From Elusimicrobiota bacterium (GTDB lineage: Bacteria; Elusimicrobiota; Elusimicrobia; Elusimicrobiales; UBA9959): a DNA stretch of 64,000 bases. A program made the position numbers. Of this stretch, positions 21,001 to 27,000 are shown piece after piece; position 1 is the stretch's first letter; every line of letters begins with the position of its first letter. The DNA is taken from NCBI GenBank assembly GCA_036574205.1, contig JAINCQ010000037.1, forward strand, positions 68,669 to 132,668, written 5' to 3'.

Positions 21001-24000
21001 CAAATTGCGCCACAAAATCAGGTATTACCCTGAAGAAAGCCGCGTCATTATAAAAACCGTTTTTAACAAGGTTGTAAAACCTATCAACCCCTTTTGGCGC
21101 CCATTCTCTTTTAACTTCTACTACAAAAACGCCTTTTGTTGTAGTGAATCTTACTTTAAAGGCATCAGGGGCTGTTTCATTCATTGTTTGCGGATTTAAT
21201 AATTTTTCCATATTCACTCCATTTAATTTATAATTTTCACTTTCAATTTTTATAATGCTTTTTTCTTTATATTCTTTGCAGGCAAAAAAAGATAATATTA
21301 AAACAGCGATTGCTATTTTTCTCATATTATCCTCCAATTATTTTAAAGCATATTCAATTTTTATTTAAGTCTTTATGTTCTACTATAAAACTTCCAATTA
21401 CAGAATAAAAGACAGTTGCCTTAATAAGGTCCGATATCGGCATTTGTTCATTCACGCTATGCGCGTATATTTCATTAGCAGGGCCAAATCCAACAGATGG
21501 TATTCCGAGCCGTCCAGCTGATGCTACACCATTTGTTGAGAATACCCATTTACCAACTTTAGGTTTTTTCTCAAGCGCAAAATTTGCAGCTTTTATTGCT
21601 GACTGAACAAGATGATGTTTTTCTTCTAAAACCCATGTCGGAAAATATTTCTCCTGCTTTACCTTTAATCCTTTCCAGCTTGTTGCCTCATAATTTAGTA
21701 TTTCTACCTTTGCCTTATACTTTTTTACAGAAGGTAGATTTTTTATTTGCTTTATTGCAAGATCTTTATCCTCACCTTTTGTAAGTCTTCTATCTAAATA
21801 TATTACAGCTTCATCTGGAATAGCATTTAAGGATGGAGTCTTAGATTCTTCATATGTTACAGCAATGGTTCCTTTTCCAAGAAAGTGGTCATTTTTTAAT
21901 TTTTCATTTAATTTTGTTACTTCTTGAATAATATGGCTCATTTTAAATAGAGCATTATCTCCTCTTTCTGGCGCTGAAGCATGGCAGGATTTCCCCTTTA
22001 CCGTTATTTTTATTTCCATCCTTCCCCTGTGTCCTCTATAAACCGAAAGATTTGTCGGTTCAGTTAATATTACATAATCGGGTTTTATTTTTTCTTTATT
22101 TACTATGTGAAGAATTGGAAGTCCATCACAATCTTCTTCCTGAACCGAACCTACAGCTATGTAGGTATATTTATTTGCAAGTCCAAGCTCTTTAATTATT
22201 TTTCCAGCATAAACCATTGAAACCATTGAAAGCTTTTGATCACTTGCTCCCCTTCCCCAGATTTTGTTATCTTTTATAATTCCTTCAAATGGCTTTATTT
22301 TCCACTCTTTAGGATCTCCAACGCCAACTGTGTCTATATGAGCGTCTAACATTACTTTCATTTTTCCATTTCCAATAAATCCGAGAATGTTTCCCATTTT
22401 ATCTATTTTTACTTTATCAAAACCACAGATTATCATTTCTTTTTCAATTAATCTGACAAGGTCCCCTTCTTTTGTTGAAAAACTTGGAGTTTTAATCATT
22501 TTAACAGCAAAATTAATTATGTCTTTTTTATATTTTTCAGCTAATTCTTTTACTTTTTTATCCATTTGATTCCTCCATATATTCTTATGTTATTATACTA
22601 AATTTGTTTGATATAATTTTTATTGATGAAATCAATAAGATTTGATATAATTTTTATTGATGAGATCAATAAGGATAGCTTTTTTTGGAAAAGGTGGAAT
22701 AGGAAAAACGACTATAGCCGCAAATTTTTCTGCATATATTGCAAGTCTCGGCAAAAAGGTTCTTGTAGTTGGTTGTGATCCCAAAATGGATAGTACAAAG
22801 CTACTTATGGGAAAAGAATTCATATCTCCCTTTATGGAGAAAATGAATCCTCACTCTACAAAAAACGATATAATTTCTAATATATATAAATCTCCGATTA
22901 TTAAAAATCTTGATTGTATTGAGGTCGGTGGTCCAAAGCCCGGGGTAGGTTGTGCTGGTGTAGGGATAGGTATGATGATAGATATGCTTGGCAAATATAG
23001 TATAGCTGATGAATATGATTTTGTTATTTTTGATGTGCTTGGAGATATAGTATGTGGTGGTTTCGCAGGTCCTTTAAGAAGTGGGTTTGCTGATATTATG
23101 ATTATAGTAACATCTGATGAAATTTCTTCACTTTATGCTGCAAATAGACTTATCAGTATGGCTCAAAAGTATAAAGAAAATGGTATAAAAAGAGTTTGTT
23201 TGATAGCTAATTTAAAAGAGGGAGGGGATGTAAAAAAAATTACAGCTTTCTCAGAGCTTTGCAATGTTGATGTAATATCAACAATAAATTATGATATTAA
23301 AGTAAGGACACTTTCCGATAAAAATAAACTTGCGGTATTTTTCTTAAAGGAGAGCGGATTTTATCGCGAAATTAAAAGAATTTACAATGAGGTATCTAAT
23401 AGAAAAATAAAAAATATTGATTTCAAATCCCTTGATTCCTCTACTTTTACAGAACTTTCTATTAATAATTTTGAAGTTTTAAGCAATAAAGTTCATCAGT
23501 TAAAAGAAAACTTTTTTAATTATTCATCTATTGATGAGGTGGTGAAAAAAAATAAAATATCTTTTCGTGGAATTTATGCTGAAGGTCAACTATTGTTTTC
23601 ATTCAATTATGGCTTTCAAAAAATAAGCTTTATCATTATGTCCTATTCAGTTAGCAAAGGTAAATTAGATTATAAAGACTGGTTTATCTGCTTTTCCCCT
23701 GGAACACCATATAATCAACAGATAAGATTTTCAGAAAAACTTAATGAGATCAAAAAATCCTTCTCAAATTTTAAATATGAAGAAATAGAAAAACATTTTA
23801 TTGGTAACAAAATGCATTTCAGGAAAAATCTGGAAAAGGATAATATTTCAGTGAAGATTATCTCATCAAGACCGTTAACAGTCGGCGAAAAATGGCATAA
23901 GTTTATATATACTGAGGGCTTTACTAAGATATTTATTCCTCCGGGAGTAGTTATTATAGAACATGGAGATATAGAATGTAAATTTAGCGATGGCGTTGGA

Positions 24001-27000
24001 GGTAATCTTGGAATGTTTTGTAAAAAAGACATTCAGTTTCCTTCTATGCCAAAATGGATGGTAAGGATATTGAATGATGAGATAGATGATAACGATATTA
24101 TATATGGCGATGAAGAGAAGATTAAATCCTGTATTAAGACAGTTCCTGGGTTTAGAAAAAAAGGACTTATAGAGATATATAACTGTTGTACCCCTCTGCT
24201 AACTGCTGCGGACAAAAGTTCAATTTCAAAACTTAAATCTGTTTATATGGAAAATCTTAATAGCTTTAATGAAAATACTTCTTATGAAAAAATAGAAAAG
24301 CGTATAAAATATATGTTAGATAGGATAAAAATTATAGATAAAAAAGATAGATATGATTTTAATTTTATAAATTTTAATTTTAATGATGAAATTTCCAAAT
24401 ATCTTAAAAGTGCGAAAGTAAGATTTATCGAGACTGGAGAACATACTGATGAATTCGTTTTTTATAGCGCTATTAAAGGCTCAAAATGGCAAATATTATT
24501 TAATGATGATCTGGTTTTAAAAGGATGTTTTGAAAAAGCTGGAATTAATTATAAAATTTTTCCCCCTCCTTTCGGTTTAAAAAATAGTATTAATTTGTTA
24601 AAGAATTTAAGTTTATTATCTGATAGAAATATTATGGATTTTGTTACGGCTGAAAAAGAAATTATAAAGGAGTTGTTTAGTTTAAAAAAAGATAATAAGA
24701 ATATTAAAATAGGCATAATAATTAATGTTAATGAACTTCAAGCTTTTTTAGTAAATAAGATAGGAAAGGAAATACCAATTTTTGATTTTTTATCTGAAGC
24801 TGGTTTTGATATAAATATGTTTTTATATTTAGACCAAAGTAAATCTTCGGATATTTTAAAGTTACCTAGAAAAGAAAATCTTAAGATAATATTTTTTAAA
24901 GATCCTAAAGAACTTTCATCCGTGCTTTTGAAAAGTAAAGTTAGGCTTGTTTATTCTGATGTAAGAACGGATAGGAGACTTATAGAACTTGGTATAACTC
25001 CATTTTCGGAGGATATTTTTGAAATGGGTATTGAGGGTTTTTTTGAAACAATAAAAAGGATAAGAAGGCTTAATGAGTGGAAGTTTTATGAAAAATACGC
25101 TGGATATAAATATAAAGGAAAGAACTGAAAACTCAAGCATGCTTCCATTTTTACTCGGAGTTATGCTTGGAATTAATTCTTTTGACGATGTTCTTTTAAT
25201 AGTTGACGGGCTTAATTGTATTATGTCAAGGGTTGAGTACATATTTGGTAATCACGATTTATATTCTACGCTTCTTTTGCCATCAGGTAAACACAGAATA
25301 ACATACACTATGAATGGTCCATTTACTACAGCAAATTCCGAAGAAAGGCTTATCTCAATTATAAAAAAAAATCTAGAAGATAGAAAATATTCTGCTATTT
25401 TTATTACGTCTTTGCCATTTCAAAAATTGATGAGACCTGATTATGAAAGAATCATAAAAAGTATAAAATCAGATATCCCTATTATATACATTGATCAGAA
25501 AAAGACTGATGATGATTGGATTGAAGGATATTCTGCATTTTTATCCTCTATTATAAGTTATATATTTTCAAAAGGAAGTAAGAAAACTAAAAGAAAAAAT
25601 ACTATTGCTATCCTTGGTAATATGTATGACAGAAATGAATATGATACAAAGGCTAATATAAGTGAGATTTGCAGATTGGTTGATATATGCGGCTATGAGC
25701 CGATTTATGTATTTCCTTCTGGCGGAAGTTTTATTGATGTATGGAAAATTATGGAAGCTGAACATATAGTTGTTCTTCCATATATTAAAGACTTGCTTCC
25801 TCAAATTAGCAAAAGCACATCTGCAAAAGTTTATGAAATGTGTTTGCCTTTAGGAATAGAAGCCTCCATAAGATGGGTTTACGAATTAAATAAAAAACAT
25901 GTTAAGTTCGCCCAAAAAATAGCCTTAGAAAGCATGGAAAGAGTAATGCCAATTATAAGTGTTATGTCTGGGAAAAATATTGTTTATTTTGGAGAACCAT
26001 ATATGCTTGATTCACTTTCTTATTTTTTTGATGATCTTAATATTTCAGTGGAATCTGCATTTTTAAATACAAACCCTAAGAAAATTGATAATATAAGAAT
26101 ATTTAAAAGACTTTTGTTTAATTATGATATAAATAAAGTAGATAGAGAGTTGGGAAAAATTATAGATGAAAAGCATATTAATCTTATTGTTGGCAATTGC
26201 TTTTCAAAGAAGCTTGTGTCTGGAAAAAATATTCCTTTCCTTGAATTTGGTTTCCCATCATATGGATTTCATTGCCTTTCTGATCAACCTTATTTTGGAT
26301 TTGAGGGTTTTGTATCATTTGCAAATAGAATTGCAAACTCCATACTTTCAACAATTTGAATATGAAAATACTTTCCTGTATAACAGATATAGAAGAGATA
26401 AGATATCTTAAAAAAGCGGGGGCTGATGAGGTTAATATAGATGCATATGAAGAGATTTTTGAGAGCTTAAAAGTTCTTGTTAATTGTGGAATAGATTCCA
26501 TGATAGTTTCTAATATTGGTTTTGCGTCTTTTTTAAATAAGGTATTCCCTTCTTTAAATATTCATTTGAGTTCAATAAACCCTGTTTTTAACTCTGAGGC
26601 TTTTTCTTTTTTAAGATCCAGAATAAGGTTTTCAAGGCTTATACTTCCAAACCAGCTGTCTGCTAAAGAAGCCCAAGGATTGGTAAGAACCTGCAAAAGT
26701 AAAAAAGTTGAAGCTAAAATATTTTTTCAAATTTTTGGGTTGTCTATATATAATGCATTGTGATCTGTTAGTATCGTTTAAATATATGTCAAATATTCTT
26801 GTTATATATTCTTTTAAAAAACAAGCCTGAAGATGTTCATAAAAAAATGGATATCCACCTTTTTTAAGCATTAATTCTGATGCCTTTATAAAATAAGGTA
26901 TTGTATCTGAAACTTTAACTTTAATTTCATTTTTTGATAGCTTTGCCCTACCTATATATTGAAGAAATTGAATGATTATTAATTTCAACCCTATTTTAGA

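Follow-up and report, generated by a model that had tools for sequence, protein, structure and literature searches.

Does the nitrogenase relative of this hot-spring Elusimicrobiota bacterium carry its electron donor and a catalytic subunit on one polypeptide and, if so, on what might such an enzyme act? We analyzed a window of 64,000 nucleotides, by which we mean the whole stretch covering positions 68,669 to 132,668 of contig JAINCQ010000037.1 (Table 1). The genome-wide survey's note had described an ORF of 823 aa joining NifH to a NifD/K-type part, followed by a separate gene of 428 aa, and ORF calls, translation and Pfam confirmed both. As read from these data, a predicted ATP-driven electron-donor protein is covalently joined to one of the two putative catalytic subunits.

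Table 1. Features of the nfl pair and its surroundings, in window positions.
Feature	Position	Strand	Evidence or remark
TP_methylase-like ORF	20186-20632		Pfam, weak
YgeY-family M20 hydrolase	21354..22565	-	NCBIfam; divergent from nflHD, 94-nt gap
34-bp tandem direct repeat, 2.0 copies	22607..22673	+	96% matches; TATAAT in each copy
nflHD	22657..25128	+	one 823-aa ORF: reductase (Fe-protein) module + alpha-type catalytic module
NifH-like ATPase domain, residues 6-267	22672..23457	+	Pfam Fer4_NifH 3.8e-60
Variable low-complexity linker, about residues 268-300 (~30 residues)	23458..23556	+	conservation, alignment
Middle domain, about residues 301-428 (~125 aa)	23557..23940	+	alignment; orphan
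Alpha (NifD/NifE/BchN)-type core, residues 430-817	23944..25107	+	Pfam, PDB profile, conservation
nflK, beta (NifK/NifN/BchB)-type subunit, 428 aa	25073..26359	+	Pfam Oxidored_nitro 3.6e-36
Truncated peptidase-U32-family remnant, 135 aa	26356..26763	+	profile positions 2-91 of 233
Interrupted radical SAM gene	26632..27552	-	in-frame TAA at 27031-27033
HxsA4-type HXS (His-Xaa-Ser) locus	27512..47898	-	family profile matches
TP_methylase-like ORF	27512-28171		Pfam, weak
HxsB, second, radical SAM	33309-34685	-	HXS locus
HxS-repeat protein HxsA4	44429-44752	-	77.4 bits (cut-off 55)
HxsB	46014-47504	-	HXS locus
HxsD-like	47452-47898	-	HXS locus

The nflHD frame opens with TTG at 22657, and the ATG at 22660 is the likelier start, giving 822 aa. 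Its H domain has a Walker A motif (G11-K-G-G-I-G-K17-T), and in an alignment of 37 sequences D41/K43/D45, D126/D130, C99 and C133 are invariant. The two cysteines align with the two [4Fe-4S] cysteines of NifH, and motif context and published work suggest equating them with Cys97 and Cys132 of A. vinelandii. Of the whole protein, the linker is conserved least (column identity 0.32 across residues 276-300), and its length differs among relatives. The middle domain has conserved motifs (G..GGQ, D341-W342-x-x-C345 and W/F..PP); it had no Pfam match, the best PDB profile search gave E 0.33, and its Atlas structure matches all had TM < 0.5. P0268, a D-like representative of 577 aa that lacks a NifH part, aligns to the profile from position 30 onward; therefore, a standalone D-like protein carries the middle domain, which belongs to the D module.

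Pfam places Oxidored_nitro on residues 430-770 of the whole ORF at 4.6e-9 (36.1 bits, cut-off 28.6). This match had been noted as weak, and we firmed it by comparing a profile of seven relatives with PDB sequences. Alpha-type chains matched from 1.3e-22 (9d9u_A/9fmg_A) through NifE (1.3e-13) down to NifD (1e-6), whereas beta-type chains reached only 1e-3 to 0.5. In a profile-profile comparison, the C-terminal part could also be aligned to the K-like family, at 97.4% probability across 329 columns. Invariant positions are H436-G-D-x-E-C441 and C511, and NifD Cys62 has no equivalent in nflHD. The start of nflK overlaps the end of nflHD by 56 nt, and its sole invariant cysteine is C49 (D-G-x-x-C); its PDB profile matches NifK (2e-19), AnfK (5e-16), NifN (2e-11) and BchB (3e-11). 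In this 95%-complete genome, nflHD is the sole NifH, nflHD and nflK are the sole Oxidored_nitro pair, and NifB is absent. These data show that the two genes encode predicted versions of all three modules of a nitrogenase-like two-component reductase.

How widespread is the fusion? The expectation that the NifH-first layout recurs in relatives was borne out by 36 homologues of 805-873 aa, each covering at least 96% of nflHD, and homologues down to 25% identity keep a single frame and all motifs. Run X1, which may be the source sample itself, gave a Logan contig that spans 22600-26400 unbroken and matches with no difference and no gap. Within nflHD's own family (f1), all 15 NifH-type matches lie in frames of at least 745 aa; for eight of these, in G062, G094, G122, G220 and G226, the H and D parts were checked to share one ORF. 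A K-like gene adjoins in 7/7 loci and in 8/8 loci, two sets that partly overlap. Fusion also holds for 18 of 20 representatives sharing the middle domain, and the boundaries of linker and middle domain are conserved across relatives. These data show that fusion is the rule within the nflHD subfamily, as its gene sequences read. Fusion as the normal form of the paralogue, as earlier proposed, thus stands for this subfamily but not for the wider D-like family, where 38 of the best 150 representatives are fused and 112 are not; sister families hold both fused and split forms. The relatives of "1213 aa" proved to be frames that run from stop to stop in GC-rich genomes: the NifH domain of L006 begins at residue 335, and nothing was recognised upstream of it in that frame. 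The in-frame TAG reported for one relative is real (L098, the same protein as P0065), lies in the linker, and is a single case among many intact genes.

Membership in group VI, left untested in the survey's note, is supported by phylogeny. The tree unites the NifH domain of nflHD and both NifH genes of Elusimicrobia GWF2_62_30 in a clade of 24 rows (SH-aLRT 98); the Meheust 2020 text that was available names this genome where it describes group VI neighbourhoods. These two genes are the genome's sole Fer4_NifH matches; both lie in long frames and both are fused. The tree therefore supports placing nflHD in the Elusimicrobia group VI NFL lineage. The nfl system shares with the published group VI proteins (Meheust 2020; PMC13474568) the NifH motifs and both cluster cysteines, divergent D/K-like partners with few cysteines, the lack of NifB and many radical SAM neighbours. 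The accessible portions of those texts do not mention H and D as one polypeptide: the Meheust 2020 bioRxiv main text uses "fused" for other proteins only, and the available text of the Chem Rev 2026 review (PMC13474568) has 0 matches for "fused" or "fusion".

As a new architecture in general, the fusion had been overstated, since papers of 2012 and 2024 had already recorded H-D/E fusions with an N-like gene after them in archaea, Firmicutes and Deltaproteobacteria (PMC3464626; PMC11237513). Dos Santos 2012 called analogous fusions nifH-nifE-like plus nifN-like (PMC3464626), and a NifH-NifD/E fusion of Methanomassiliicoccales is listed in PMC11237513 (cluster 443). We found fusions of that type in Methanosarcina, Methanomassiliicoccales, Clostridium tetanomorphum, Sporobacter and a Myxococcota MAG. 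Like nflHD, they place H before an alpha-type part with a beta-type gene adjoining. However, their NifH domains form a clade of their own (14 rows, SH-aLRT 99) at the opposite side of the tree, and against the nflHD family HMM their C-terminal parts reach no more than 8-50 bits. They are also shorter (~690-810 aa), those examined have no such middle domain, and their loci have no HxS repeat. The starred branches of the NifH tree force at least three changes, and the AU test rejects a tree with all 48 fused rows in a single clade (dlnL 352.5, p 3e-45). By these phylogenetic data, the nflHD fusion is shown to have arisen independently of the archaeal and Firmicutes H-D/E fusions.

The setting of the pair suggests what the enzyme may act on, because it lies beside an HXS cluster and, in relatives, inside one. 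Profile matches point to an HxsA4-type HXS locus as the identity of the "radical SAM suite" that accompanies group VI genes, an identification that is new here and is not made, nor an HxS-repeat precursor recognised, in the available portions of Meheust 2020 and PMC13474568. Both HxsB matches in the window exceed the cut-off (510 and 461 bits). The locus holds 14 radical SAM family ORFs, or 15 counting the interrupted gene just outside it, among them several HxsC/HxsC4-like ones, together with a B12-radical SAM gene, an N-type ATP pyrophosphatase, a PEP-utilising-type protein and a TP_methylase-like ORF. The nfl pair and these genes run convergently, not in the same direction. With the HXS antiphage system HxsA-D (Nat Commun 2026, PMC13128918), the locus shares HxsB, over its cut-off here, and HxsC-like, HxsD-like and HxS-repeat proteins. 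That system differs in having four genes and an HxsA with five repeats and a peptidoglycan-binding domain; the precursor here belongs to NCBIfam's "HxsA4" type and fits ~14 repeats into 107 aa, and the locus has 14-15 radical SAM family ORFs and an attached nitrogenase-like pair. The antiphage paper has 0 mentions of nitrogenase or NifH.

Linkage of nfl and HXS recurs across genomes, in counts that take in related genomes and are not independent samples. In seven of the eight f1 genomes with nfl, it lies on one contig with HxsB, 3-16 kb apart; in families f5 and f7, where many assemblies are fragmented, both lie on one contig within 20 kb in only 4/15 genomes. HxsB occurs in 22/23 group-VI-bearing Elusimicrobiota genomes versus 0/12 with ordinary NifH/Nfa-type genes, and in all three Myxococcota genomes with group-VI-like NifH. 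A Myxococcales MAG (L047) has the order HxsB-nflH-nflD-nflK-HxS repeat, with every gene on the same strand, and G274 (Elusimicrobiota) has HxsB-HxS repeat-nflH-nflD-nflK. HxS repeats were found in two of 104 loci examined, both group VI, and in none of the other NifH-type loci. An HxS repeat gene was present in 9/9 neighbourhoods that were chosen for HxsB and thus add nothing independent. HXS does not need nfl: all 22 f1 genomes have HxsB and only eight have nfl, and two same-genus genomes carry the HXS locus without it.

We consider it probable, with moderate confidence, that nflHD and nflK form an (HD)K nitrogenase-like reductase of group VI. More tentatively, and a little short of an even call, we propose that its substrate is a peptide-linked intermediate made by the adjoining HxsA4-type locus, such as a modified His-Xaa-Ser repeat, and not a free tetrapyrrole; we favor it because of the gene orders in L047 and G274 and the absence of HemB, HemC and NifB. 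The closest characterized models are DPOR (BchL/ChlL with BchN-BchB) and CfbCD, where an ATP-dependent NifH-type reductase likewise feeds a D/K-type core whose Fe-S cluster is simple and which lacks ligands for FeMo-cofactor. The H domain shares 39% identity with BchL/ChlL and 36.5% with a CfbC. Unlike them, nflHD scores far below the cut-offs (BchL, 160.9 against 345; NCBIfam CfbC and nifH, 189.7 bits each against 402 and 394), the reductases there are free proteins, and its genome lacks a tetrapyrrole pathway. Two H modules would form a dimer with a [4Fe-4S] cluster between them, ligated by C99 and C133. By analogy with DPOR and CfbCD, ATP binding would dock the H dimer onto the D/K pair, and one-electron transfers would pass through a simple cluster at the D/K interface to the substrate. 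Motif context suggests C441 and C511 (D) and C49 (K) as likely ligands; the fourth would be C345 or a residue other than Cys. Tethering would set H:D:K at 1:1:1, half the Fe-protein of a saturated nitrogenase-type complex; therefore, either one D/K half would be served at a time or H modules would pair across complexes. The linker of ~30 residues would presumably be flexible.

The published group VI hypothesis, put forward in the Meheust 2020 main text and section 7 of the Chem Rev 2026 review (PMC13474568), is a tetrapyrrole or cofactor reductase: assisted by the methylase-like and radical SAM enzymes encoded nearby, it would reduce a double bond in the ring of a tetrapyrrole, either novel or scavenged. 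Tetrapyrroles are also what its characterised relatives DPOR, COR and CfbCD reduce, the locus has its B12-radical SAM gene, and TP_methylase-like ORFs occur in the window, in L008 and in the G068 slot. However, the ORFs of the window score only 31 and 42 bits in Pfam and 0.015 to CbiF in PDB and match no NCBIfam equivalog, and HemB and HemC are absent at 95% completeness, although a tetrapyrrole might be scavenged. In addition, scores place the radical SAM neighbours among the HxsB/HxsC peptide maturases, an HxsA4 precursor is present, and nfl sits between HxsB and the repeat gene in L047 and after them in G274. We regard a tetrapyrrole substrate as unlikely but the most serious competitor to a peptide-linked one.

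NifH-type proteins are ATP-dependent low-potential reductants. The pair might thus only reduce the [4Fe-4S] clusters of the 15 radical SAM family ORFs (one stop-interrupted) within 27-48 kb and leave the product untouched. We think this improbable: a mere donor would have no need of a D/K core whose pocket residues are conserved, nor of a further conserved domain, and HXS loci do without nfl in the majority of f1 genomes as well as in the characterised system (PMC13128918).

Less probable still is a NifE/NifN-type assembly platform made of the C-terminal part and nflK, with NifH as maturase partner. The NifE and NifN matches and the Dos Santos 2012 naming are consistent with it, but the genome has neither NifB nor another Oxidored_nitro protein to receive a cofactor, and the top PDB match, 9d9u_A, is a catalytic-type alpha chain. 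A lost stop, frameshift or misassembly yielding a non-functional product, to which the TAG of L098 and the damaged U32 and radical SAM neighbours of the pair could point, is effectively refuted as regards the fusion by the full-length homologues, the uniformly long f1 frames, the conserved boundaries and the identical second assembly, leaving it a negligible probability.

The 34-bp repeat upstream overlaps the nflHD start codon, and a promoter-like TTGATG-17-TATAAT (22623-22651) is formed across its two copies; any promoter function is unproven because the number of such sites (33) shows no enrichment over the 28.8 expected from shuffles. The slot of the U32 remnant holds two whole U32 genes in a same-genus genome. 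The YgeY-family hydrolase gene also adjoins nfl in L005 and is present in a same-genus genome without nfl.

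The first gene of the nitrogen-fixation-like (NFL) pair, nflHD, encodes a NifH-like ATPase (H) and a catalytic-subunit-like part in one frame. Residues 6-267 match the Pfam family Fer4_NifH (PF00142) at 3.8e-60, with 204.1 bits against a cut-off of 25, and cover profile positions 2-264 of 271, which places the protein in this superfamily. Residues 430-770 match Oxidored_nitro (4.6e-9, 36.1 bits against a cut-off of 28.6), and the product of the next gene, nflK, matches the same family at 3.6e-36. An ATG at 22660 gives the N-terminus M-R-S-I-R-I-A-F-F-G-K-G-G-I-G-K-T, matching record P0003, the same protein at 822 aa. 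The long frame is not one assembler's artefact, since a Logan contig from run X1, a DNA run labelled hot springs metagenome that may be the source sample of the window, spans 22600-26400 unbroken with 0 differences and 0 gaps at a depth of 12.6. A search of 5.8 billion proteins returned 61 matches to the fused protein. Apart from the window's own record, 36 of these homologues are 805-873 aa long, with at least 96% query coverage and 25-49% identity. Precomputed annotation assigns both Pfam families to 31 of the 36, and the remaining five (P0027, P0034, P0037, P0039 and P0040) score 343-521 bits against an HMM of the C-terminal part. These data confirm the genome-wide survey's description of a NifH-first fusion to a NifD-like part, followed by a separate gene.

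Positions of the nfl pair and of genes in the neighbouring His-Xaa-Ser repeat peptide (HXS) locus, in window coordinates
Feature	Position	Strand	Remarks
nflHD	22657-25128	+	one ORF, 823 aa, opens with TTG
nflK	25073-26359	+	428 aa; 56-nt overlap with the end of nflHD
HXS-type locus	about 27000-47900	-	21 kb; long gene string downstream of the nfl pair
HxsB, first	in HXS locus	-	510.3 bits against a cut-off of 370
HxsB, second	in HXS locus	-	461.2 bits against a cut-off of 370
HxsB-like ORF	in HXS locus	-	316 bits
HxsD-like	in HXS locus	-	41.1 bits, below the cut-off of 50
HxsC/HxsC4-like ORFs, at least six	in HXS locus	-	best HxsC-like score 169 against a cut-off of 267.9
PapB-like radical SAM ORFs, two	in HXS locus	-	
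N-type ATP pyrophosphatase, PEP-utilising-type protein, TP_methylase-like ORF	in HXS locus	-	
B12-radical SAM gene	40323-42293	-	matches PADLOC candidate defence family PDC-M51A (1.6e-36, 124 bits)
HxsA4	44429-44752	-	107 aa; hydrophobic N-terminal stretch; about 14 His-Xaa-Ser repeats; 77.4 bits against a cut-off of 55

The start of nflHD is overlapped by a 34-bp tandem duplication (22607-22673, 2.0 copies, 96% matches). Each copy carries a TATAAT, and a promoter-like TTGATG-17-TATAAT lies across both, ending 8 nt before the ATG. If this site acts as a promoter, a nearly leaderless mRNA would follow. The first copy also opens a short out-of-frame ORF.

We aligned 37 sequences of the fused protein (alignment A1). 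Invariant positions include the Walker A motif (G11-K12-G-G-x-G16-K17-T), D41/K43/D45, D126/D130 and four cysteines, C99 and C133 among them. We take C99 and C133 to be the inter-subunit [4Fe-4S] cysteines of NifH, with equivalence to the A. vinelandii residues assigned by motif context. Statements in Meheust 2020 and in a 2026 review (PMC13474568) also back this equivalence of the cluster motif. Conservation falls to 0.32 in a linker at residues 276-300 that varies in length and is Asn/Lys-rich in the window protein and Pro/Ala/Arg-rich in GC-rich relatives. It rises again across a middle domain of about 125 residues with conserved G..GGQ, D341-W342-x-x-C345 and W..F..PP. No Pfam family covers this domain, and the best E in a PDB profile search was 0.33. 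In the ESM Atlas there was no feature match and all structure matches had TM < 0.5, the Atlas's own model being poor (pLDDT 0.66). Sequence comparison assigns the middle domain to the alpha-type (D) module. A standalone D-like representative of 577 aa that lacks a NifH domain (P0268) carries it, since its profile match starts at position 30; and at locus L047, in a Myxococcales MAG with a separate gene for each of H, D and K, the D frame likewise extends well upstream of the core. PADLOC gave only a P-loop match for P0001 and none for P0002.

To type the two catalytic-subunit-like parts, we compared profiles of seven C-terminal parts (A2) and of seven second-gene products (A3) with PDB sequences. 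A2 matched alpha-type chains: 9d9u_A/9fmg_A at 1.3e-22, NifE at 1.3e-13, NifD at 8e-13 to 1e-6, VnfD at 7e-11 and BchN at 7e-5. Beta-type chains reached only 1e-3 to 0.5. The PDB titles of 9d9u and 9fmg read just 'Nitrogenase'; we take both to be methylthio-alkane reductase. For A3 the top 15 chains were all beta type, with NifK at 2e-19, AnfK at 5.3e-16, VnfK at 3.5e-15, NifN at 2.3e-11 and BchB at 2.8e-11, and alpha-type chains ranged from 3.9e-11 (9d9u_A) and 4.9e-11 (BchN) down to 8e-3 (NifD). The two profiles align with each other over 329 columns at 97.4% probability. By these profile matches, the C-terminal part of nflHD is alpha type (NifD/NifE/BchN-like) and nflK beta type (NifK/NifN/BchB-like), so H and D are encoded in one chain and the beta-type (K) module in the next. 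The earlier description had flagged its C-terminal domain match as weak, and the alpha-type assignment is upheld both by the Pfam score and by the PDB profile matches.

Candidate cluster ligands are conserved in both products. In the D part these are H436-G-D-x-E-C441 (100%), C511 (100%) and C345 (89%), and the sole invariant cysteine of nflK is C49, within D-G-x-x-C. In motif context, C441 and C511 resemble NifD Cys88 and Cys154, and C49 resembles NifK Cys95, with an equivalent of Cys62 missing. Three or four cysteines at the putative D/K interface would be compatible with one [4Fe-4S]-type cluster, and PMC13474568 reaches the same one-cluster conclusion for group VI generally.

The fused protein falls below the NCBIfam cut-offs of the characterized families, with 189.7 bits against 394.35 for NifH (TIGR01287), 189.7 against 402 for CfbC, 160.9 against 345.15 for BchL and 148.1 against 331.2 for BchX. 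A true NifH was rejected on this score and on genome content. The genome (1.85 Mb, 43 contigs, 95.3% complete) encodes a single Fer4_NifH protein, the fused one, the other match being a 21-bit P-loop hit. There are exactly two Oxidored_nitro matches, the fused C-terminus and nflK, and no NifB was found. CfbC, BchL and BchX were rejected on their scores and on a position outside those references in both trees described below. nflHD and nflK are the organism's only such system.

We built two trees of NifH domains taken from the protein matches, 80 genome loci and added references (ChlL/BchL, BchX, true NifH and a CfbC, with labels assigned from NCBIfam scores). The first (LG+G4) holds 155 of 276 distinct domains: every domain with a tail of 350 aa or more, every one that scored 280 bits or more, the references and a sample of standalone sequences chosen by hand; the window row is not included. 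The second (LG+C20 PMSF) has 97 rows including the window. Here the window domain groups with P0004-P0006 (SH-aLRT 100), and this group nests in a 24-row clade (SH-aLRT 98) of 23 fused genes and P0065. Both NifH genes of Elusimicrobia bacterium GWF2_62_30 fall in the same clade, and this genome is named in the Meheust 2020 paragraph on group VI neighbourhoods. Phylogeny therefore supports the survey's proposal that the window gene belongs to group VI NFL, by way of one named genome. Group VI traits are also found here: genes for M- and P-cluster assembly are lacking (NifB is absent), most ligands of the P-cluster and FeMo-co are missing from the D- and K-like partners, whose conserved cysteines are limited to C345, C441 and C511 (D) and C49 (K), and 15 ORFs with radical SAM family matches lie within 25 kb.

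GWF2_62_30 has only two Fer4_NifH matches, one in an open frame of 854 aa and the other in one of 1212 aa. In both, NifH is followed by Oxidored_nitro, and Pfam recognises nothing before NifH in the longer frame. Thus, some at least of the proteins published as group VI 'NifH' are fused. The one seemingly standalone member of the clade, P0065, is the NifH half of a gene (locus L098) with a single in-frame TAG at about 1420 (-). The TAG lies in the linker, 25 residues past the NifH domain, and the start of the middle domain follows, with no ATG, GTG or TTG near the TAG. The TAG may mark a recent fission or a read-through site, or be an error; two intact fused copies are also present in this genome. 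Two further standalone candidates, P0064 and P0066, were rejected as contig-end fragments on contigs of 1.1-1.7 kb.

How widespread is the fused form? A NifH-type match at E <= 1e-30 occurs in 35 of 301 Elusimicrobiota genomes. Of the 22 genomes in the window's family (f1), 8 carry such a match. The 15 matches of this family are without exception in frames of 745 aa or longer; H and D in one ORF with an adjoining K-like gene were confirmed for 8 of the 15. The two other genomes of the window's genus have no NifH-type match. Fused and split forms are both present in families f5 and f7, and ordinary standalone NifH/Nfa-type genes occur in 12 genomes of other families. A profile search of 1.84 billion representatives gave 443 matches to A2 at E <= 1e-30. 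Among the best 150 of these D-like representatives, 38 have a NifH domain and 112 do not; where the match includes the middle domain, 18 of 20 are fused. In five representatives (P0221, P0225, P0236, P0241 and P0262; 989-1067 aa) the H-D order is kept, but NifH and Oxidored_nitro are separated by a longer spacer, of about 350 aa. These counts indicate that fusion, which the survey's note had called the normal form, is the rule in the window's subfamily but the minority form in the wider family.

The layout itself is also less novel than the note had implied. Such fusions were left out of the trees of Dos Santos 2012 (PMC3464626), and in a 2024 survey (PMC11237513) a NifH-NifD/E fusion is described in Methanomassiliicoccales and composite and split forms in Methanosarcinales and Methanomicrobiales. 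In the second tree the previously noted fusion proteins make up a separate clade of fused members only (14 rows, SH-aLRT 99) on the opposite side, and two Bathyarchaeia fusions form a third fused clade. Starred branches force at least 3 changes of fused state, and placing all 48 fused rows in one clade is rejected by an AU test (dlnL 352.5, p 3e-45). Common descent with the archaeal/Firmicutes NifH-NifE-like fusion family was therefore rejected, and the window fusion arose independently, as a variant of a layout that earlier papers had noted. For group VI, we found no statement of a fusion in the literature searched, including the accessible parts of the Meheust 2020 preprint, PMC13474568 and PMC9447857, although it may be drawn in the Meheust 2020 supplements; 'fused' or 'fusion' has 0 occurrences in the available text of PMC13474568.

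Two side observations concern other fused frames. Loci L012 and L058 (Bathyarchaeia) encode NifH-first fusions of 731-743 aa with a beta-type gene downstream, and branch near Negativicutes standalone NFL and true NifH. At L043 4825-6882, in a Ruminococcaceae MAG, a true-NifH-type domain nearly identical to the NifH of locus L035 lies in a 686-aa frame whose 403-aa tail is unrecognised by D and K HMMs.

The HXS assignment of the neighbouring locus rests on HxsB and HxsA4, which score above their NCBIfam cut-offs; the HxsC-like and HxsD-like ORFs score below theirs. HXS was described in 2026 (PMC13128918) as an antiphage system in which HxsB, HxsC and HxsD mature an HxS-repeat effector. The window locus is far larger than that four-gene system. 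The paper makes no mention of nitrogenase-like genes, and neither 'HxsA4' nor 'HxsC4' was found in the literature searched.

Several observations link group VI genes to such loci. In f1, nfl and HxsB lie on one contig in 7 of 8 genomes, 3-16 kb apart by hand calculation from match coordinates, and on different contigs in the eighth. At locus L005, HxsB (430 bits), an HxS-repeat ORF and a YgeY hydrolase all lie within 7 kb of the fused gene. HxS repeats were found at 2 of the 104 loci examined, both of them group VI loci. The order at L047 is HxsB (478 bits) - nflH - nflD - nflK - HxS-repeat gene on a single strand, and that in the Elusimicrobiota genome G274 is HxsB - HxS-repeat - nflH - nflD - nflK. 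HxsB is encoded by 22 of 23 group-VI-bearing Elusimicrobiota genomes and by none of the 12 with ordinary NifH types, kin that are not independent samples. It also occurs in all 3 Myxococcota genomes with a group-VI-like NifH and in 0 of 14 control genomes.

Other observations speak against a link. HxsB is present in 22 of 22 f1 genomes whether or not they have nfl, both genes share a contig within 20 kb in only 4 of 15 f5/f7 genomes, and the nfl pair of the window runs convergently to the HXS genes. Collinearity with a same-genus genome that has no nfl extends to either side of the slot between the YgeY and radical SAM genes, where that genome has a TP_methylase-like gene, two whole U32-family genes (L124 11390-12325 and 13738-14568) and two unknown ORFs. 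In the window this slot holds nflHD, nflK and a 135-aa U32 remnant (26356-26763). The adjoining radical SAM gene (26632-27552, -) is broken by an in-frame TAA at 27031-27033; its same-genus orthologue (L124 14558-15577) encodes an unbroken 339 aa. Between the two fused nfl genes of GWF2_62_30 lies a U32 gene (L006 7980-8933). By its mixed linkage and the exchange at this slot, nfl behaves as an exchangeable cassette of HXS loci. In the literature searched, no earlier connection of group VI genes with HxsA4-type HXS loci came up, so that this link appears new, and from gene linkage the nfl products may take part in the maturation of the HxS-repeat protein.

As for the substrate, we rank first a peptide-linked product of the adjoining HXS locus, a reading to which we give a little less than even weight. 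It comes before a tetrapyrrole, the substrate proposed for group VI by Meheust 2020 and PMC13474568, because neither HemB nor HemC was found in the 95.3% complete genome, the methylase-like ORFs give weak matches and the neighbouring radical SAM ORFs are peptide-maturase types. A scavenged tetrapyrrole is thus ranked second, and we consider it improbable. An electron-supply or other role for nfl comes third. A NifEN-like scaffold role is unlikely, since the genome has no client enzyme, no NifB and only two Oxidored_nitro matches. A diphthamide-like histidine modification, drawn from TP_methylase-like and Dph6-like ORFs, was reduced to a bare lead, as the methylase-like ORF matched only CbiF (0.015); the ATP pyrophosphatase match holds (3rjz, 1.7e-8).

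We tentatively propose, with somewhat less confidence than in the peptide-linked substrate, that group VI enzymes are not tetrapyrrole enzymes but serve HxsA4-type HXS loci as an optional reductase module driven by ATP. They would carry out a nitrogenase-style reduction of a ribosomal His-Xaa-Ser repeat peptide, or of a radical-SAM-built heterocycle derived from it, with an Fe-protein that in this lineage would be permanently tethered and at half the usual stoichiometry. If the enzyme works like nitrogenase, DPOR and CfbCD, two H modules would dimerise to bind their cluster, and ATP-dependent docking on the D/K pair would send electrons first to the interface cluster and then to the substrate. 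A fused H-D chain would fix H:D:K at 1:1:1, compared with 2:1:1 in a saturated (H2)2(DK)2 complex. Either one D/K half would then be served at a time, or H modules would pair between complexes.

In the nitrogenase cycle as taught, the Fe protein binds, passes one electron and dissociates. A natural tether of Fe protein to alpha subunit at a predicted 1:1:1 is a ready-made test of the need for dissociation and for the 2:1 stoichiometry. We infer that the fused HD gene and the K gene form what looks like a two-gene system, and the family offers natural linker designs to groups that join nif genes for easier expression in plants. According to PMC13474568, group VI is the one NFL group without a characterised member, and the HxS-repeat peptide gives it a concrete, genetically encoded candidate substrate that is open to testing. 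If the peptide reading is true, it would provide the first case of a nitrogenase relative with a peptide as its substrate.

Elsewhere in the window, about 2.7 kb (17900-20640) is not matched by collinear sequence in the same-genus genome G068; there, nusB directly precedes the PPIase gene. This stretch contains ORFs of 489, 117 and 148 aa, of which the 148-aa one is TP_methylase-like and weakly matches a TP_methylase-like gene elsewhere in the G068 locus (32% over 89 aa).
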